Below are positions 10,337-60,525 of a stretch of 64,000 nucleotides of DNA, in pieces. Source of the DNA: an uncultured Thermoplasmatales archaeon (lineage in GTDB: Archaea > Thermoplasmatota > SW-10-69-26). Within the stretch, counting starts at the first letter, position 1. Each line of letters begins with the position of its first letter. The stretch covers positions 3,057 through 67,056 of the forward strand of contig CAYNEI010000009.1 of the NCBI GenBank assembly GCA_964396185.1. The letters run 5' to 3'. The notes beneath the pieces are model-generated. The model was given only the letters and a program-made list of their open reading frames with translations. It had not been told where the DNA came from and did not search any database. The position numbers and the translations under genes are program-made.

Positions 10337-11845
10337 ATGGATGGGAACAGGGCCCGCGGCCACCGTGACGCCCTGTTCTCCATCCTCCTTCTCCTTCTCG
10401 CGTCGTTGGCCGCTCCGGCGGTCACGGCGCAAGACCCACCTGACCCTTCACAGGCAGGGCGTTGGTTCGGCGTCGTCGTCACACCAGACCGCGGCGCTGT
10501 CCACGTGCCGTACATGCAGAACACGCTCGTGAACTTGACCCTGCTAGACGTGAGCAAGGGGGACGGAGAGCCACTCTCGTCGGGTCGAATCCTTCTTCAG
10601 GTAGACGTTCTCGGAGAGGATAGCCAAGGCTGGGAGGCTTCGTTGACGACCTCGGCCGTAACGACGCGACCCGGGCAGACCCACACGGTCGGCCTCTTCA
10701 TCGAGGCAGGAGCCATCATCACCGAACCCACCGCAGAGGTCCTCATCACGGCACGCTACGATGCTAGGATTGGCCAGGACTTCGAGACCAACCTCACGAT
10801 CCTGGCAGTCGCACAGCCGAATCCCATCGTCACCCTCCGCTTCGAAGGAACCTTCCCAGAGTTCTCCCCCGACGAGGAGAAGCGTGTCGGGTTAACCGTC
10901 ACGAACCAAGACTACTACCCGAACATGATCCTCTTCGACGTTCAAGCCCCTGAGGGTTGGATCATCTCGCCACCGAGCTCCATCCAGCTCGGACCGGGTG
11001 AAGAAAGGCAGGTGTTCTTCGACGTCAAAGCGCCCCAGGACCCTTGGTTCCGCCTCAACCCAACCAGCGATGTCTTCCTCGTCACAGCCGAAACCAGCCA
11101 GGCTGGTGGGAACCAACACACCGTTGCGATCCCGACCCCCCTGACAGGGTACTTCCTCCCCGGCTGGGTCATGCCCCACATCGTGCTCTTCTTCCTGGGC
11201 GCTGCCGTGCTGGCCAAGCGCTCCAAGGACAAGCACGAGGAGCGCAAGCTCGAGAAAGGCAAGCCGTCCTACCCTGGCCTCCCGGTCGAAAAGGAGGCCG
11301 AGCTCGAGGCGCTCAAGCAGACCGATCCCGACAAGGCCGAGCGCATGGAGGAGCGGTTGAAAGAGCTCCACGGGAAACGCTTGGCCGCCTGGAAGCAGGT
11401 CTACAAGCAGCGCAAGGAGAAGGAGAAGGAGCTGCGCGAGCGCGAGAGGGAGCGCCACGACGCGATCCTTCGCGAGCAGAAGAAGCAAGAGCGGGAACGC
11501 AAGAAGGCCGAGAAGGCCCGGCGCAAGAAATTGGCCAAGCTGCGCAAGCAGAAGCGCAAGAAGCGAAAGCGCCTAGAGCGCAAGCAACGCAAGGCCGAGA
11601 AGCGCGCAGCCAAGGCCCGGCGCGAAGAGGAGAAGCGCCTGGCCAAGCAGATGCGCAAGAAGGAGAAGCAGAAGGAGAAGCGCCTGGAGGAGCTCGAGGA
11701 GAAGCGCGCCAAGCTCCGCAAGGAGCAGGAGAAGCAGAAGCGCAAGGAGCTTGAAACCAAGCGCAAGCGCCTCGAGAAGCTTCGCAAGAAGAAAGAGCGA
11801 GGCGACGACAGCGACTCCCCCGCGTGGAAGTTCTGGAGGACCTGA
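10337..11845 (+). CDS. type I membrane protein: NEW3/CARDB-like ectodomain, one TM helix, long K/R/E-rich tail
   Basis: Signal peptide (LLLLLASLAAPAVTAQ), LTVTNQDYYPNMILFDVQAPEGW, TM helix GYFLPGWVMPHIVLFFLGAAVLAKRSK, then ~200 aa made almost only of K, R, E, L, A and Q. Confidence 0.75.
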   Translation: MDGNRARGHRDALFSILLLLLASLAAPAVTAQDPPDPSQAGRWFGVVVTPDRGAVHVPYMQNTLVNLTLLDVSKGDGEPLSSGRILLQVDVLGEDSQGWEASLTTSAVTTRPGQTHTVGLFIEAGAIITEPTAEVLITARYDARIGQDFETNLTILAVAQPNPIVTLRFEGTFPEFSPDEEKRVGLTVTNQDYYPNMILFDVQAPEGWIISPPSSIQLGPGEERQVFFDVKAPQDPWFRLNPTSDVFLVTAETSQAGGNQHTVAIPTPLTGYFLPGWVMPHIVLFFLGAAVLAKRSKDKHEERKLEKGKPSYPGLPVEKEAELEALKQTDPDKAERMEERLKELHGKRLAAWKQVYKQRKEKEKELRERERERHDAILREQKKQERERKKAEKARRKKLAKLRKQKRKKRKRLERKQRKAEKRAAKARREEEKRLAKQMRKKEKQKEKRLEELEEKRAKLRKEQEKQKRKELETKRKRLEKLRKKKERGDDSDSPAWKFWRT

Positions 11846-13922: not shown

Positions 13923-14843
13923 TTGCCCCTCCCAGCACGCACCACCGGGATCCTTGCCACCATGGGTGCAGCGGTGCTCTGGGGCAGCTCGTTCCCAGCC
14001 AACCAGATCGGCCTCGAGCACATGGGGCCCGGCGTCTTCGTGGCCGCGCGCTTCGCGCTGGCCGCGTTGATCGTGCTACCGTTCGCCTGGCGGCTCATCC
14101 GGGAGACCATGCAGCGCTGGGAACCCTGGGCCCTGGGCGCGGTCAACGCCGTGGCCTTCCTGCTGCAGTACGTCGGCCAGACCACCGCGCCGGCTGGGGC
14201 GGCTGGGCTGCTCGTCAACGCCAACGTCGTCGTCGTGGCGCTCGTGGCCTGGGTGTGGCTGGGCGAGGATCCCACCCGGCGCACCTGGGTGGCCATGGGG
14301 GCCGCTCTCGTGGGCGCATCGCTGATCATCTACGAGCCAGGCCAGGGCGCGATCCAACTCGGCCACCTGCTCGTCTTCCTGGCAGGGGCCACGTGGAGCT
14401 TCTACATCGTCGGCACGCGCGCCAGCTTGCTCGATGGGCACTCGCCCACCTCGCTCGCCCTGGCAACCTTCGTGACCAGCGGCGTGCTGCTCTCCCCCTT
14501 CCTGCTTCTCGAACCCCTGCCCACAGCAGCTGTCCCCGTGGCCATGATCGCCTGGACGGGGATCGCGTGCACCGTGGGCGCCTTCGCCCTCTGGCTGCAT
14601 GGCCTGCGCAGCGTAGGTGCTACCGCCAGCGCGGTGGTGCTCCTGCTGGAGGTCTTCGTGGCCGCTGCCCTGGGGGCCTGGCTGCTCGCCGAGCCCTTCC
14701 CGCCGCGCAAGCTGCTCGGTGGCCTGGCCATCGCGGTCTCGATCCTGGTGCTCTCTGGTCGGGGGGACGACCTTGAACCACAAGGCCACAAGGAGCACAA
14801 GGGGATCGCGGGGGAGGGGTACCACGGGGAAGACGCGGGATGA
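13923..14843 (+). CDS. EamA/DMT-family transporter
   Basis: Ten hydrophobic segments in two EamA-like halves (AAVLWGSSFPANQIGL...; ATWSFYIVGTRA...). TTG start, with an ATG alternative at 13962. The last ~22 codons are encoded by the repeat element at 14775. Confidence 0.8.
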   Translation: MPLPARTTGILATMGAAVLWGSSFPANQIGLEHMGPGVFVAARFALAALIVLPFAWRLIRETMQRWEPWALGAVNAVAFLLQYVGQTTAPAGAAGLLVNANVVVVALVAWVWLGEDPTRRTWVAMGAALVGASLIIYEPGQGAIQLGHLLVFLAGATWSFYIVGTRASLLDGHSPTSLALATFVTSGVLLSPFLLLEPLPTAAVPVAMIAWTGIACTVGAFALWLHGLRSVGATASAVVLLLEVFVAAALGAWLLAEPFPPRKLLGGLAIAVSILVLSGRGDDLEPQGHKEHKGIAGEGYHGEDAG

Positions 14844-14947
14844 GGTAGGCTCGGCCGCGTGTGGCTCAGGGAGGGCGCTCTACAGGCTGGGCCCGTCTCC
14901 CTGGTTCCGTTGTGGGCCGTTGTGCCGTAATGCCGTTGTGGTGAACC
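14775..14947. repeat. periodic-arm palindromic element (CACAAGG / CCGTTGTG type)
   Basis: Left arm GAACCACAAGGCCACAAGGAGCACAAGGGG plus a G/A-rich tract. Right arm CCGTTGTGGGCCGTTGTGCCGTAATGCCGTTGTGGTGAACC. Arms are complementary with periodic 1-nt bulges. Confidence 0.75.
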
Positions 14948-14959
14948 GTCGTCAGACCG

Positions 14960-27179: not shown

Positions 27180-28544
27180 TCACTCGACGATGGTGACCAG
27201 GTGGAGGCCTTCCTGGTGGAAGGCGTTCTCGGTCATGCCGTCGAAGTCGATGGTGACCAGGCCGCTGGAGAGCACGCTGGGGTCGTAGTGCTCGTCGCTG
27301 CCGGCGCGCACACCGAAGGCGTTGACCAGGGCGTTGTACTCGTAGGCGGTGTCGTTGCCGAAGCCCACGTGGAGGCTCTCGAACGCGTCGACATCGTAGC
27401 TGTCATGCCACAGGTCCAACAGCGGCGTCTCGAGCTCGATCTCGCTGTCCTCGTGGACCTCGAGGGCGTCGAGCTCGAGGACCTCGGCGTCGTCGAGGAG
27501 GTTCTCGCCGTCGGCGTCGGCGATGGTCAGCGCGCCGTCGACGTGGCCGGCGCGCACGAAGAGGATGTAGGTGTCGGGCTCGAGCTCGAGCGCGATCTCC
27601 TGGGGCTCCACGTGGTTGTGGTACCGGTAGTCCCAGGGCGTGCAATCCTCAAGGCTGTGGCAGTAGTTGCGCGAGTCCTCGAGGGGTGCGCCGAGGTGGA
27701 GGTACTCCACTTGGGTCCCGTTGCTGGCGAAGAGGCTGGCGTCTAGCATGTAGCCCTCGTGGATATCGAAGGTCACGACGGCCCCGTTGGGCGCATGGAA
27801 GCGCAGGGGCACGTAGTCAGCCTCGGTGATGTTCATGGCCTTGAGCTCGGGCTCCTCGGCCTCGATCTCCTCGTCGGCCTCATCGATGTCCTCGGGCAGG
27901 ATGGGCGTGAGCAGGGTGACGTAGACGGCGCCGTCCAGGGCGTCGGCTTGGATGCTGACGTCGAGCACGCCGTCGGCAAGCGCCTCGGCGGCCTCCTCGG
28001 CAGCCGCGGCTTCGACGCCGGAATCGCTGGCGCGGAAGACCGTGCCGGAGTCGCTGGAGCCCACGATGAGCAGGTTCTCAGCCGCACCGTCGATGGCGCC
28101 CGAGACGCCGACCAGGCGCTCTGGGAGGTCGATGGTGACCGTGGTGTCCACGGCGTCGCCGTCTTCCTCGACGAGCTTGATGCGGCGTTCGTCGGTGTCG
28201 AGCTCGGTGACGTCGCCGTCGCCTGTGGCCGAGACCACGGCCTCGCCGGCGAAGAGCGCGACGATGGCGCTGCCGCCGTCGAGGATGAAGTCGTGGGAAT
28301 CGCCGGCACCGATGGAGCGGGCGACCACGAGCTCACCGTCCAGATCGTAGACCAGGGCCTCGGTGGCTTCCTCGGCCTCGATCCGGAACCGGTCGTCGTC
28401 CGCCTCGACGAAGTAGACGCCGGTGGCCACGGCGCCGATGCGGTCGTACTCTGATGCGTTAACAGCCATGGGGGCAAGCGCGCCGATCAGCAGTGCGATG
28501 GCGCCCAACGCGATGTATCTCCTCTGCATGGGGGATCTCTCCAA
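27180..28544 (-). CDS. secreted acidic hypothetical protein
   Basis: Signal peptide RRYIALGAIALLIGALAPMAVNA, then a D/E-rich 430-aa body. An AT-rich box (TTTTATACCC on the minus strand, 28561-28570) lies about 20 nt upstream. Confidence 0.65.
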   Translation of the reverse strand: MERSPMQRRYIALGAIALLIGALAPMAVNASEYDRIGAVATGVYFVEADDDRFRIEAEEATEALVYDLDGELVVARSIGAGDSHDFILDGGSAIVALFAGEAVVSATGDGDVTELDTDERRIKLVEEDGDAVDTTVTIDLPERLVGVSGAIDGAAENLLIVGSSDSGTVFRASDSGVEAAAAEEAAEALADGVLDVSIQADALDGAVYVTLLTPILPEDIDEADEEIEAEEPELKAMNITEADYVPLRFHAPNGAVVTFDIHEGYMLDASLFASNGTQVEYLHLGAPLEDSRNYCHSLEDCTPWDYRYHNHVEPQEIALELEPDTYILFVRAGHVDGALTIADADGENLLDDAEVLELDALEVHEDSEIELETPLLDLWHDSYDVDAFESLHVGFGNDTAYEYNALVNAFGVRAGSDEHYDPSVLSSGLVTIDFDGMTENAFHQEGLHLVTIVE

Positions 28545-28620
28545 GCCACCCGACGGGTGGGGGTATAAAAGCTTGATTGGTCAATCTGTTGAAACGAAGG
28601 GCAGAGTGCCGCGAGACGTT

Positions 28621-28808
28621 CAACACGGAGGCACGGAGACACGGAGCGAACGGAGGAAAGGGGGACGTGGAAGGACCGGAAAGGCGGGATAATCGAGGCG
28701 GTCAAAGAGATGTGGTCCGTCATCCCGCTCACGATGGACAAAATTATAGGATTATAGCAGTTCAGCACGGATCCTTCCGTTCTCCGTTCGCTACGTGCCT
28801 CCGTGTTA
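28621..28808. repeat. periodic-arm palindromic element (CACGGAG / CTCCGTG type), paralogue of 35001-35279
   Basis: AACACGGAGGCACG (28622-28635) pairs perfectly with CGTGCCTCCGTGTT (28794-28807), and AGCGAACGGAG pairs with CTCCGTTCGCT. The first 36 nt match the 35001 copy with 1 mismatch. Confidence 0.85.
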
Positions 28809-28839
28809 GACGGTTGTCTCGGTGCCTCCACGCCCTCCC

Positions 28840-33285: not shown

Positions 33286-33335
33286 GGTGCCTGCAAGGCC
33301 GCGGGCAAGAAGGGCCTTGCGGCTCGCCTCGGAAC

Positions 33336-33476
33336 GATCACCACGCCGAGCAAGCTCACCACACCGGAAAGCTCACCACAAGGGCACAAAGGACACAACG
33401 GGCCAGAAGGGGACGATCGAAGCGGTCCCCATGGTCCTCGGGAGATGTTCGTGTCCGTTGTGACGTTGTGGTGAGG
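33336..33476. repeat. periodic-arm palindromic element (CACAAGG / CCGTTGTG type)
   Basis: CTCACCACAAGGGCACAAAGGACACAACGGG (33372-33402) faces GTTCGTGTCCGTTGTGACGTTGTGGTGAGG (33447-33476). Degenerate extra units lie at 33336-33371. Confidence 0.75.
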
Positions 33477-33541
33477 GGGAGATGGTCAAGTTGCCGCGTG
33501 GGTGACCTTTATCAGGCTGAACGCATCAAGGAGACACGGCG

Positions 33542-34993: not shown

Positions 34994-35000
34994 GACCCAT

Positions 35001-35279
35001 CAACACGGAGGCACGGAGACACGGAGGGAACGGAGACAGGAGGAGGGTGTGGAAGGACGGGAAGGGGAGGGAGACTGGAGGAAGACCAAGAGATGAGTGG
35101 GCCGGCGTCGAGCTTCGGATGGACTGAGTTAGAATGAGTATGACAGTTCCGGGGCCCCTATAGATCGCCTCTCTGCCGTCTGCCGCTCCGTTCGATGAAG
35201 GCCATCGTCTTTTGCGCGGACGCGCGCTCCTCTCGAATCTGGCGATTTGGTCTCCGTTCGCTCCGTGTCTCCGCGTTGT
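35001..35279. repeat. periodic-arm palindromic element (CACGGAG / CTCCGTG type), paralogue of 28621-28808
   Basis: GGAGACACGGAGGGAACGGAGAC in the left arm pairs with GTCTCCGTTCGCTCCGTGTCTCC (35250-35272), with 1 mismatch. The interior is also homologous to the 28621 copy, plus an extra ~90 nt. Confidence 0.85.
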
Positions 35280-35291
35280 ATCCCTCACCGC

Positions 35292-45171: not shown

Positions 45172-45278
45172 GCTCACCACAACGCCACAACGGGCACAAG
45201 GACCCCGGACGGGCGGGAACCCTCCCCCTGTTCCCGGTCCCATCGTGAGCCGTTGTGCCCTTCGTGCCGTTGTCGTCG
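45172..45278. repeat. periodic-arm palindromic element (CACAACGG type), imperfect
   Basis: CTCACCACAACGCCACAACGGGCACAAGGACC, central hairpin GGGAAC-cctccccct-GTTCCC, then GTGAGCCGTTGTGCCCTTCGTGCCGTTGTCGTCG. Confidence 0.65.
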
Positions 45279-45353
45279 ACCCCATGAAGGCTGGCCAACC
45301 GATCAAGAAGCTGCCCGCAAAGGTTTTGAACCCCCACGAGAGCTGAGGGACTG

Positions 45354-58250: not shown

Positions 58251-58979
58251 CTAAGCTTCCAAGTCGTACACGATCCGGGTGCGCCCGCTCCCCTTGTTCT
58301 CCGTGCGAAGGATGCGCATCTCGCCGATCTCGCCTGTGGACTTGACGTGCGTGCCGGCGCACGGGCAGATGTCGATGTCCGGGATCTCCACGACGCGCAG
58401 GGTCTGGATGAAGTCCGGGATGAGGTGGAGCAGCGTGCGCTCGGTATCGATGCGCTCGGCCAGGCTGGAACGGTCCTCCTCATAGCCCAGGACCTCGAGG
58501 TCGTCGTCGAAGACCTCGTTGCACGCGGCCTGGATCTCCTCGAGCTGCGCGTCCGTGAAGGCGTCCGTTTCGAAGTCGACGCGAGAGTAGTCGGTGCTGA
58601 TGTTGTTGCCGCAGGTCTTCATGCCGTCGTAGCGCTCGTAGGCGATGGCCGAGAGCACGTGCTGGGCGGTGTGCATACGCATGAGCGTGTGGCGGCGGTT
58701 CCAATCGATCTCGCCGACCACCTCGGCTCCCGTCTCCGGCAGCCCACCAGCGAGCTTGTGGATGGGGTCCCCCTTCTGTTTGCGCACATCCGTGACCTGG
58801 ACCGGCTCATCGCCGACGCGGAGCACGCCCGTGTCGTGGGGCTGGCCTCCACCGGTGGCGTAGAAGAGGGTCTGGTCGAGCTTGACGTGGTTCTCGCTTG
58901 CATCCACGACCCTGGCCTCGAACGTCTTCTGGTAGGCCTTGTCCGGCTCGGGGAGGTAGAGGATGTCCGTGGTCGCCAT
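58251..58979 (-). CDS. alaX: AlaX-M-type alanyl-tRNA editing protein
   Basis: TLFYATGGGQPHDTG, RMHTAQHVLS (HxxxH), ICPCAGTHV (CxxxH). ATG at 58979 preferred; the TTG at 59024 lies in the repeat flank. Confidence 0.82.
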   Translation of the reverse strand: MATTDILYLPEPDKAYQKTFEARVVDASENHVKLDQTLFYATGGGQPHDTGVLRVGDEPVQVTDVRKQKGDPIHKLAGGLPETGAEVVGEIDWNRRHTLMRMHTAQHVLSAIAYERYDGMKTCGNNISTDYSRVDFETDAFTDAQLEEIQAACNEVFDDDLEVLGYEEDRSSLAERIDTERTLLHLIPDFIQTLRVVEIPDIDICPCAGTHVKSTGEIGEMRILRTENKGSGRTRIVYDLEA

Positions 58980-59028
58980 GGATGCCAAGAGATGGGCGGG
59001 GTAGAAGGGGTTTGCGCTGGCCAACCAA

Positions 59029-59416
59029 CCTAGATCACGAAGGGCACGAAGGGGTCACCAAGGACACGAAGGAGGAAGAGGGGGAGGAGCGGGAAGAGCG
59101 GGAAGAGGTGGAAGAGGGACATGACGGATGATCCAGGGCCTTCCCGTGCTGGCCAGCCAACCTAGATCATGAAGTGCACCAAGTGGTCACCAAGGACACG
59201 AAGGAGGAAGAGAGGGAGGAGCGGGAAGAGAGAGGGAAGAGGTGGAAGAGGGAGACGACGGGCGGTCGAGTGCCCGCCCGTTGTTCCTCTCGCCCCTGGT
59301 GCCCTTCGAGCTTCTTCGTGTCCTTCGTGATCCAGGTCCTGGGCCTTCACCCACCCACCCGTGTTCCTGCTATCCTTGGTGCCCTTCGAGCTTCTTCGTG
59401 TCCTTCGTGATCTAGG
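59029..59416. repeat. compound periodic-arm palindromic element (CACGAAGG / CCTTCGTG type): two left arms, two right arms
   Basis: Left arms start CCTAGATCA[C/T]GAAG at 59029 and 59161. Right arms GGTGCCCTTCGAGCTTCTTCGTGTCCTTCGTGATC at 59298 and 59378 are identical over 35 nt. Termini GATCACGAAGG and CCTTCGTGATC are perfect inverted repeats. Confidence 0.88.
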
Positions 59417-59461
59417 TCGTCGGTCGGAAGGGCTTAACCGACCAGCCTCTATCTCGACGCG

Positions 59462-60355
59462 ATGGACGTGCGGATCATCGGTGTCCCCATGGATCTGGGG
59501 GCGGCTCGGCGTGGGACCGACATGGGGCCGTCTGCGGTCCGCGCCGCTCGCCTGCAAGGACGCCTGGAGGAGCTAGGCCACACGGTCAAGGACGGTGGCA
59601 ACGTGTTCGCCGTGGAACCCGAGACCCGCAAGGGAGATCGCACGGATGCCCGGTTCCTGGCCGAGATCGTCCGGACCTGCGAGACCCTGGCCCGGCGCGT
59701 GGCCAAAGCCAAGCAGGCCGACGAGGTGCCACTCATCATCGGGGGGGACCACAGCATCGCCATGGGCACCGGGGCGGGCGTCGCCACGGGGGATACGCGC
59801 GTGGGCGTGCTCTGGATCGACGCGCACACCGATTTCAACACACCCGAGATCAGCCCCAGCGGGAACATCCACGGCATGCCTCTCGCGACCCTGGTCGGTC
59901 GGGGCAACCCCCGGCTCTGCGAGATCGGGGGCATCGCTCCCAAGGTCCGCGAGGAGGACGTGGTCATCATCGGGGCCCGGTCGATCGATGGGGAGGAACG
60001 CGACCTGCTCTCCAAGAGCGACGTCACCGTGTTCACCATGCGCGACATCGACGAGAACGGGATGAGCTCCGTGATGGGGCAGGCACTTGAGATCGTCGCC
60101 GACGGACCCGAGTGGATGCACGTGAGCCTCGACATGGACGCTGTCGACCCCACCATCGCCCCTGGCGTGGGCACCCCGAAGAAAGGGGGGCTCACGTACC
60201 GAGAGGCCCACCTCGCGTGCGAGATGATCAACGACTCAGGCCTGCTCTCCTCCATGGAGATCGTAGAGGTCAACCCCATCCTGGACGAGGGCAACAAGAC
60301 CGCCGAGCTCGCCGTCGATCTTGCGCGCAGCGCCTTCGGCAAGCAGATCTTGTGA
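59462..60355 (+). CDS. rocF: arginase (ureohydrolase family)
   Basis: GGDHSIAMG, WIDAHTDFNTP, SPSGNIHGMPLA, SLDMDAVDP, EVNP. Confidence 0.88.
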   Translation: MDVRIIGVPMDLGAARRGTDMGPSAVRAARLQGRLEELGHTVKDGGNVFAVEPETRKGDRTDARFLAEIVRTCETLARRVAKAKQADEVPLIIGGDHSIAMGTGAGVATGDTRVGVLWIDAHTDFNTPEISPSGNIHGMPLATLVGRGNPRLCEIGGIAPKVREEDVVIIGARSIDGEERDLLSKSDVTVFTMRDIDENGMSSVMGQALEIVADGPEWMHVSLDMDAVDPTIAPGVGTPKKGGLTYREAHLACEMINDSGLLSSMEIVEVNPILDEGNKTAELAVDLARSAFGKQIL

Positions 60356-60366
60356 CCAACAGGCGG

Positions 60367-60525
60367 GAACCACAAAGTCACAACGGACACAACGACCACG
60401 ACGTGAGATGAGTCGGTCCATCATGGAGGTGCCCAGCAGCCCGTGGATCCACCAACATGGCCGGGTCGTGGCAGGTCGTACTGGGTCGTGGTGGGTCGTT
60501 GTGCCCCTTGTGCCGTTGTGGTTGG
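60367..60525. repeat. periodic-arm palindromic element (CACAACGG / CCGTTGTG type)
   Basis: AACCACAAAGTCACAACGGACACAACG (left) faces CGTTGTGCCCCTTGTGCCGTTGTGGTT (right), about 27-nt arms with a few mismatches. Extra GTCGTGG units on the right. Confidence 0.78.

Follow-up and report, generated by a model that had tools for sequence, protein, structure and literature searches.

A compound foldback repeat in a Thermoplasmatota genome and its relation to a widespread GxxExxY-linked hairpin family

Architecture of the compound locus

A compound inverted-repeat element lies at positions 59016–59426 of a 64,000-nucleotide stretch of DNA from an uncultured Thermoplasmatales archaeon (GenBank assembly GCA_964396185.1, contig CAYNEI010000009.1, positions 3,057 to 67,056 of the forward strand). 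The whole stretch is referred to as the window, and positions are counted from its first letter. Here we describe the element, the family of hairpin repeats to which it belongs and the small GxxExxY genes with which this family is associated elsewhere. The element occupies a divergent intergenic region, between the gene of an AlaX-like tRNA-editing protein with tRNA_SAD and tRNA-synt_2c C-terminal domains (58251–58979, − strand) and that of an arginase-family protein (59462–60355, + strand), both of which are transcribed away from it.

Four arms in the order L1–L2–R2–R1 make up the element, all given here on the + strand. The outer left unit, L1 (59016–59147), consists of the terminus GCTGGCCAACCAACCTAGATC, four CACGAAGG/CACCAAGG units, a purine tract with a period of 9 nt and a degenerate copy of the central stem-loop. 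The inner left unit, L2 (59148–59281), matches L1 at 93% of positions in the first 83 nt and at 89% over the full ~132 nt; because of four substitutions in its first two units, it pairs less well with the right arms. Both left units open with GCTGGCCA[A/G]CCAACCTAGATCA, continue with the four CACGAAGG/CACCAAGG units and pass into the purine tract. The unit array of L1 reads CACGAAGG-G-CACGAAGG-GGT-CACCAAGG-A-CACGAAGG, and the right arms are its complement. Tandem Repeats Finder (TRF) reports tandem repeats at 59036–59072 and 59070–59118. The inner right arm, R2 (59282–59340), and the outer right arm, R1 (59363–59426), share the sequence GGTGCCCTTCGAGCTTCTTCGTGTCCTTCGTGATC, starting at 59298 and 59378, and are identical over 35 nt (59298–59332 and 59378–59412) and 85% identical over 62 nt. 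R2 ends in GATCCAGGTCCT; R1 carries the terminus GATCTAGGT, with weak pairing extending out to ~59426.

The left terminus CCTAGATC is found at 59029 and 59161, the right terminus GATCTAGG at 59409, and the right end of the inner copy reads GATCCAGG. The outer arms (59028–59051 and 59394–59417) are 96% complementary over 24 nt. The termini of the locus, CTAGATCAC and GTGATCTAG, represent a variant nearest to the TCATCAC termini of two metagenome contigs (L060 and L168). In the centre (59258–59281), ACGGGCGG (59258–59265) pairs with CCGCCCGT (59274–59281) in a perfect 8-bp stem with an 8-nt loop. Taken alone, the inner copy (L2, centre and R2; 59148–59340) is a 193-nt foldback element with a fold z-score of −4.95. 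It is bordered directly on its left by the direct repeat GGGCCTTCCCGT (59136–59147) and directly on its right by GGGCCTTC[ACCCACCCAC]CCGT (59341–59362), the last 9 nt of which also resemble the 3′ half of the central stem. The predicted fold of the entire locus is a series of nested helices formed by L1 with R1, L2 with R2 and the centre, with z-scores of −6.2 for RNA of the + strand, −7.25 for RNA of the − strand and −4.7 for DNA; no shuffled sequence was as stable.

A sequence-only reading that preceded this analysis had described two left units of about 130 nt, each with a run of units and a purine tract (starting at 59029 and 59161), two right units identical over 35 nt (59298 and 59378), outer termini that are perfect inverted repeats, the end of the inner copy and a perfect central stem. 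All of these features are confirmed base for base.

Related copies in the window

Together with the compound element, seven further copies bring the number of family loci in the window to eight, in three unit subtypes and all in intergenic regions, which are variously convergent, co-directional and divergent. All are given on the + strand. E1 (1807–1846) is a solo left arm of the CACGAAGG type that has no partner and no significant fold and is intact in Logan contig L048. The remaining six have fold z-scores of −2.7 to −5.8: E2 (14773–14948; z −2.7) has CACAAGG units on the left and CCGTTGTG/CACAACGG units on the right; E3 (28618–28812; z −5.5), with the terminus TTCAACACGGAGG, and E5 (34999–35283) are of the CACGGAG type; E4 (33371–33477; z −5.8) is of the CACAAGG/CACAACG type; E6 (45172–45280; z −3.5) is of the CACAACG type; and E8 (60366–60525; z −4.1), of the CACAACG/CACGACC type, begins 10 nt past the stop codon of the arginase gene. 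The termini are TCAACAC in E3 and E5, CTCACCAC in E4 and E6, and GAACCAC in E2 and E8, to be compared with the general pattern (T)TCA[C/A]CAC... / ...GTG[G/T]TGA(A) of the family. The two-unit pattern CACRRVGNNCACRRVG occurs 13 times in the window, where 0.26 occurrences would be expected, and the pattern with 8-nt spacing 10 times, where 0.19 would be; both counts are far above chance. BLAST and alignment show that E3 and E5 are ~75% identical over ~150 nt, interior included, so that the window copies are paralogues and not convergent hairpins. No family copy is present in the 4 kb upstream of the window (L047).

Several details of these copies were recorded. Five of the eight (E1, E2, E5, E6 and E8) start about 10 nt or less from the stop codon of the upstream + strand gene, and the left terminus of E2 contains the TGA stop (14774–14776) of the open reading frame (ORF) at 14255–14776. 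Where a purine tract is present it is always on the + strand (E2, 14800–14840; E3, 28657–28690; E5, 35040–35090; compound element, 59070–59118 and 59202–59254). A 17-nt tandem repeat, CGGAAAGCTCACCACAC (33330–33380, 2.9 copies), triplicates the left terminus of E4, GCTCACCAC, which points to slippage or to recurrent events at this terminus.

A widespread family with conserved arms

To look beyond this genome, metagenome contigs of the Joint Genome Institute (JGI) and viral contigs of IMG/VR were scanned with the pattern CACGRAGN{1,4}CACGRAGN{1,4}CACSRAG. At least 120 stretches match in the metagenome contigs, which span 33–72% GC, and at least 120 stretches of the same family match in the IMG/VR contigs. 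Most of the matches listed open with (T)TCACCACGRAG or a close variant ((T)AACCAC...), which indicates that few of them arose by chance. The earlier claim of a repeat family is thus upheld, with eight loci in the window and hundreds elsewhere.

An arm of the family has 3–5 tandem CAC-RRR-G(G) units with a period of 7–10 nt after a short terminus. The left arm is followed by a purine-rich tract and a small central stem-loop, and the right arm is the reverse complement of the left. The arms of the compound locus conform to this anatomy: they contain at least three units of the form C[A/G]C-R-R-[A/C/G]-G with a period of 7–10 nt, and the purine-sense arm precedes the complementary arm, with unit-by-unit pairing. 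Among the matches listed, 75 paired elements (~67 after merging of overlaps) stand against 61 unpaired arms, the loops of the paired elements are mostly 9–120 nt long, and a strict parse of the unit arrays gives 43 left-then-right arrangements versus 3 right-then-left. Solo arms, such as that at 1807–1846 in the window, are common.

The opposite arms change in step, as the sequence-only reading had proposed. The unit cores of the left arm and of the reverse-complemented right arm are identical in 81% of cases, compared with 40% in shuffled pairings, and the variable position of the unit is an A-U pair in 19–21 and a G-C pair in 8–9 of 32 aligned elements, with few broken pairs. The further proposal that the hairpin, and not the primary sequence, is what is conserved does not hold. 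The arms of E3 and E5 are 93–100% identical over 23–30 nt to arms in unrelated metagenome contigs, and the unit CAC-RRR-G and the terminus (T)TCA[C/A]CAC are conserved over contigs of 33–72% GC, from the archaeon to several bacterial phyla. Furthermore, the bases of the spacers between units agree between the arms in only 36% of cases (9% in the null), and solo arms are frequent. The near-identity of arms between the archaeon and unrelated contigs of 33–72% GC, with gene-bearing copies occurring in several bacterial phyla, implies either horizontal spread or strong sequence-specific recognition.

Tandem multiplication of arms is also observed. In contig L058 (2526–2722), six left arms of alternating types, CCACAGAG... 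and CACCACGAAG..., follow one another head to tail with no right arms, showing that arms are able to amplify in tandem. A scan of IMG/VR for the CACAA type (CACAAVG; L297–L416) gave 172 arm matches, one of which is a family hairpin (L402); the others are mostly 9-nt-period repeats after GG(T/A/C)C and were set aside as probable coding repeats.

A search of Rfam 15 at the gathering threshold returned only a tRNA for the window, and seven representative loci searched at E ≤ 1 gave two chance-level matches. In the literature searched, whose coverage was incomplete, we found no published description of the arms, and so common a repeat may be noted elsewhere. The arm family is very widespread, not specific to one lineage and apparently undescribed.

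Association with GxxExxY genes

In elements with loops of at least 190 nt, the sole recurrent ORF among the matches listed encodes a GxxExxY protein of ~125 aa. It is also the only recurrent small ORF (70–260 aa) found beside the arms in these matches, transposase-length ORFs lying outside that scan. The protein is matched by the profiles TIGR04256 (E ~1e-42 to 1e-44) and PF13366 PDDEXK_3 (1.6e-41), and its gene lies within the arm loop in five contigs (L054, L093, L099, L111 and L160). In L418, a purine tract follows the left arm on the coding strand upstream of the GxxExxY gene, as at the compound locus.

The association also holds in the reverse direction. Around each of five GxxExxY genes picked solely for their long contigs, C[A/G]C-RRR-G units form inverted arrays on the two sides, with the termini TTCACC[A/G]C and G[T/C]GGTGAA. 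All four closer homologues from plasmids or chromids (Bacteroides, Bernardetia, Gemmatirosa and Sphingomonas) are flanked by CACAGAGG, CGCAGAGG or CGCGAAGG arms, the Gemmatirosa gene having a complete hairpin on one side only and a single unit on the other. Four more distant homologues (37–44% identity) lack such arms and are accompanied by direct repeats or by a simple inverted repeat. In low-GC sequences from Persicobacter, Fusobacteria and Prevotella plasmids (L173, L175 and L176), the GxxExxY gene is bracketed by direct repeats of ~20–60 nt, and in Treponema (L174) by the single 11-nt inverted repeat CACACGGATTCG.

Gene-bearing cassettes are located between co-directional host genes, as between an ABC ATPase and a permease (L423) and between fabD and fabG. 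In Sphingomonas parapaucimobilis the arms and the GxxExxY gene separate fabD from fabG; the two genes are adjacent in S. paeninsulae and other alphaproteobacteria, where the region is ~430–450 bp shorter. The shorter spacer in the sister species represents an empty site for the gene-bearing copy. This agrees with the mobility that the sequence-only reading had proposed for the family, and comparison of these loci indicates that the complete form, arms and gene together, enters the space between host genes as one unit, in many cases within an operon.

An AlphaFold model of the GxxExxY protein (predicted local distance difference test score, pLDDT, 90) weakly resembles PD-(D/E)XK nucleases, among them the Cas4 protein SSO0001, lambda exonuclease and a splicing endonuclease (Foldseek E ≥ 5e-3). 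With only such generic neighbours at this level, no specific activity can be assigned to the protein, and a sequence search of the PDB gave no match. The GxxExxY/PDDEXK_3 family is huge, with at least 8000 candidates in one search, and its genes are often present in multiple copies. Many of the GxxExxY-bearing contigs are just 1–3 kb long. In a 2012 survey, PDDEXK_3 is listed as a family of unknown function with mixed bacterial and archaeal clades (PMC3424549).

Searches of the window and of its element loops by tblastn with three GxxExxY proteins found no such gene, and the window copies thus represent a gene-less, non-autonomous form, which is also the majority form elsewhere among the matches listed. 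The transposases that the sequence-only reading had envisaged as binding partners did not come to light among the ORFs scanned; the protein associated with the family is instead this PD-(D/E)XK nuclease.

Origin of the compound element

We interpret the compound element as two copies of a non-autonomous foldback repeat of the GxxExxY-linked family, one inside the other, and give this reading, with nested insertion and mobilisation by the nuclease as its inferred parts, a probability of about 0.55. One copy of the CACGAAGG type (59148–59340) would have landed in the apical region of another, producing the order L1–L2–R2–R1 and leaving GGGCCTTC..CCGT on both sides of the inner copy. Comparable composites occur elsewhere: L122 contains two, one complete and one preserved as paired left arms only, L155 contains one complete composite, and in L097 two left arms follow in succession. 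In all three contigs the unit types of the combined arms are unlike, which local duplication is unable to produce and which makes it credible that family members habitually insert into one another. The outer stem in L122 runs on to the base of the inner arms, a geometry that suggests insertion at the hairpin apex. At the compound locus itself, the 8-mer GGGCCTTC stands at the end of the L1 unit and directly after R2, and is missing from the inner centre, GAGTGCCCG. Furthermore, CCCACCCGT-GTTCC, the segment that precedes R1, shares homology with the junction between centre and right arm of a normal copy (CCCGCCCGT-TGTTCC), as expected if R1 keeps its own centre.

Alternatively, the compound could have arisen within the same family without a second insertion, through tandem duplication or triplication of a copy with its right flank, followed by microhomology-mediated deletions. 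With two gaps in simple repeats, the last part of L1 (TGATCCAGG-GCCTTC-CCCGT) can be aligned with the end of R2 and the flank beyond it (TGATCCAGGTCCTGGGCCTTCACCCACCCACCCGT); read in this way, it is a truncated right terminus followed by flank, as tandem copies with internal deletions would have. The lengths agree, as the 132 nt of the L1 unit and deletions of ~83 nt add up to the 215 nt from L2 through the flank, and L1 and L2, like R1 and R2, are of one subtype and 85–93% identical. The six tandem left arms of L058 (in the order ABABAB), the tandem triplication of the E4 terminus and the lack of target-site duplications at simple copies are also in keeping with this history. It requires, however, at least two duplications and two or three deletions where one insertion suffices, the homology of the segment before R1 to a normal centre-to-right-arm junction speaks against it, and the nested composites of unlike unit types show that the family does nest. 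We consider local duplication the less likely history, nested insertion being only slightly favoured over it at this locus. The argument of the sequence-only reading, that the arm order is that expected from insertion and so speaks for mobility, therefore stands for the family, given the composites in L122, L155 and L097; for this locus, nesting is not clearly better than duplication plus deletion.

In addition to the second reading of the L1 end, a number of observations weigh against nested insertion by a family nuclease. L2, supposedly the younger left arm, pairs with either right arm at no more than 83%, versus 92–96% for L1. No target-site duplication above the level of shuffled flank pairings is seen in 64 simple copies, which makes the 12-nt repeat around the inner copy atypical for the family, and the origin of that repeat is ambiguous. 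In L058 the arms have multiplied in tandem with no nesting at all. Within the window the CCTAGATC terminus is confined to the compound locus. The GxxExxY gene is absent from the window, and action of the nuclease on the arms is, for every member of the family, a prediction made by analogy.

Comparison with relatives adds to these points. The window has a GC content of 67% and encodes a threonyl-tRNA synthetase (ThrRS) with the archaea-specific editing domain and a class I lysyl-tRNA synthetase (LysRS). Its ThrRS and arginase are nearest to proteins from Thermoplasmatota/Thermoplasmata metagenome-assembled genomes (MAGs), at only 73% identity, which identifies the host as a poorly sampled Thermoplasmatota archaeon. 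The search for empty sites proposed earlier yielded no empty-site allele for any window copy among these nearest relatives (72–73% amino acid identity). Across the ~23 kb of their sequence at hand, these relatives carry no family copy, among them the contigs nearest in ThrRS (L043 and L044, 72–73%), and at the compound locus they lack synteny, as does L002, the one nearest in arginase (73%).

The assembly of the locus bears on all of these histories. Logan assemblies of SRR12687320 and SRR12687321 agree with the contig at both flanks and at the outer ends of L1 and R1. Both end within L1 (~59062) and begin again within R1 (~59389), leaving the interior unspanned, so that the L1–L2–R2–R1 order rests on one deposited contig, a further point against the nested reading. 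The break in R1 falls in the 35-mer common to R1 and R2, which is long enough to branch an assembly graph with a k-mer size of 31. The break in L1 is less readily explained, the longest identical run of L1 and L2 there being 28 nt. Such breaks in two independent assemblies, together with repeats of 28–35 nt at the locus, might suggest that the duplicated arms are an artefact of a short-read MAG. We regard this as highly improbable: L1 and L2, as well as R1 and R2, differ at many positions, which marks them as distinct sequences and not as a collapsed or re-used path, the shared 35-mer could account for the R1 break, and the L-L-R-R architecture is also present in unrelated assemblies (L122 and L155).

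Proposed mobilisation and possible RNA-level roles

The repeat architecture, its association with a PD-(D/E)XK gene elsewhere, the insertion of a gene-bearing copy and the abundance of gene-less copies are directly supported by the data; mobilisation by the nuclease, like the nested history of this locus, is the step that we infer from them. By analogy with REPIN/RAYT systems, described below, recognition of the repeated units, or of the arms in their folded state, would fall to the nuclease or to an enzyme of the host, which may mobilise gene-bearing copies and, in trans, copies that lack the gene. The periodic mismatches of the spacers and the occurrence of solo arms fit recognition of the units by a protein better than a plain requirement for a duplex. 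More tentatively, and with less than even odds, we propose that CAC-RRR-G arrays and the GxxExxY nuclease constitute an undescribed selfish system of bacteria and archaea that resembles REPIN/RAYT, uses another class of enzyme and prefers existing hairpins as targets.

The hairpins could instead be kept by selection for a role in the host or at the RNA level, as a processing or insulating stem, a stabiliser of mRNA 3′ ends or a protein-binding array, and not through ongoing mobility. The proximity of five window copies to upstream stop codons is compatible with such a role, as is the position of gene-bearing copies inside operons, in the orientation of the host genes and with short spacers. 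In L418 the stem that would enclose the ORF appears, as judged by eye, to be ~130 nt long, GGAGG/GAAGG strings resembling Shine-Dalgarno sequences lie in the purine units just upstream of the GxxExxY start (L093 and L111), and RNA of either strand folds well. However, the element is symmetric and is found in convergent, divergent and co-directional regions, and therefore has no consistent transcript context. Its right flank is A-rich and not T-rich, solo arms are common and no Rfam family matches. The family has also expanded in this host although, to our knowledge, most archaea lack a bacterial-type RNase III. Selection of this kind would leave the multi-copy spread unexplained, though it is compatible with mobility. 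As the main explanation it appears improbable to us; an RNA-level role in insulating or processing the inserted cistron, alongside mobility, is possible. The asymmetry of G:U versus A:C mismatches, which bears on RNA versus DNA, was counted by hand in two gene-bearing copies, where the informative sites are too few.

Comparison with known repeat systems

The closest analogues of the family are REPINs with their RAYTs, miniature inverted-repeat transposable elements (MITEs), Foldback transposons, the ORF-bearing intervening sequences (IVSs) of 23S rRNA and integron attC sites, and each of them fails in at least one defining feature. Repetitive extragenic palindromic (REP) sequences, their hairpin-forming doublets (REPINs) and REP-associated tyrosine transposases (RAYTs) (PMC3116915, PMC3733652) share with the present family the short, intergenic, palindromic hairpins in many non-autonomous copies, a single small enzyme gene bracketed by inverted repeat copies, the lack of an obvious target-site duplication and the formation of clusters and composites. 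A REP is defined as a palindrome of 20–40 nt with a GTAG or CGTC tag (PMC3733652); the arms described here are arrays of 7–10-nt tandem units in place of a single palindrome, and inspection of their termini reveals neither tag. The RAYT is a Y1 HUH transposase, whereas the enzyme here is the ~125-aa GxxExxY protein (PF13366) with a PD-(D/E)XK fold; no Y1 RAYT gene flanked by the repeats was found in a non-exhaustive scan of the window. The present family also differs in its distribution, occurring in an archaeon and several bacterial phyla and abundantly in metagenome and IMG/VR contigs.

MITEs such as Correia, Nezha and Chunjie are likewise small, gene-free, multi-copy, intergenic and bounded by inverted repeats, and are tolerated in operons. 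The copies described here do have terminal inverted repeats, small size, no ORF and multiple copies. They differ from MITEs in that no target-site duplication of fixed length was found, most of their length consists of the inverted repeats, which have a repetitive structure of their own, and the ORF scan of 70–260 aa revealed no insertion sequence with the same termini and a DDE transposase. Eukaryotic Foldback (FB) transposons have long inverted arms built of short tandem subrepeats; many are non-coding and a minority carry a gene in the loop. Inverted arms made of tandem subrepeats, and a gene in the loop of a minority, are also features of the present family. FB elements are nevertheless eukaryotic, have kilobase-scale arms and encode another protein, and there is no sign of common descent.

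The IVSs of 23S rRNA, exemplified by the Coxiella IVS with its S23p protein (PMC4990558), resemble the gene-bearing form as a selfish long stem around one small ORF that is tolerated within a transcribed unit. They lie in helix 25 or 45 of the 23S rRNA and are excised by RNase III, whereas the copies here are intergenic, and their protein is a four-helix bundle, in contrast to GxxExxY. Integron attC sites are imperfect inverted repeats beside single small gene cassettes in which the fold matters besides the sequence. An attC reading is ruled out by the anatomy of the arms, which by inspection lack GTTRRRY/RYYYAAC core sites; in addition, the repeat stands on both sides of the gene and hundreds of copies stand alone. 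No integrase gene or cassette array turned up in a non-exhaustive scan of the stretches examined.

Two further candidates were set aside. The copies are not intrinsic terminators: the right flanks read GGTGAAA... and the left flanks TTTCACC, A-rich and not T-rich on the right, with no run of T, and the host is an archaeon. CRISPR arrays do not have contiguous units of 7–10 nt in two inverted halves. Overall, we rate the family as belonging with the selfish hairpin repeats that have a dedicated small enzyme.

Implications and additional observations

With an easily recognised flanking repeat linked to GxxExxY genes, hypotheses on the protein as well as on the repeat become testable. Should the reading as a selfish system prove true, a very large set of 'hypothetical' nucleases would acquire a function and a frequent kind of intergenic repeat an explanation. 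In the annotation of genomes, the arms flag small selfish cassettes inserted within operons. They also generate spurious ORFs, for example low-complexity peptides, and are abundant enough to fragment short-read assemblies, three Logan contigs (L001, L045 and L046) ending within the repeat.

Two observations concern other parts of the window. Beside E3, the sequence GGTATAAAAGC at 28560–28575 (TTTTATA on the minus strand), ~20–40 nt upstream of the gene at 27180–28544 (− strand), resembles an archaeal TATA box. At 11545–11707, within the ORF at 10337–11845, there are tandem repeats rich in AGAAGCGC, with periods of 12, 24 and 33 nt, that have no relation to the hairpin family.

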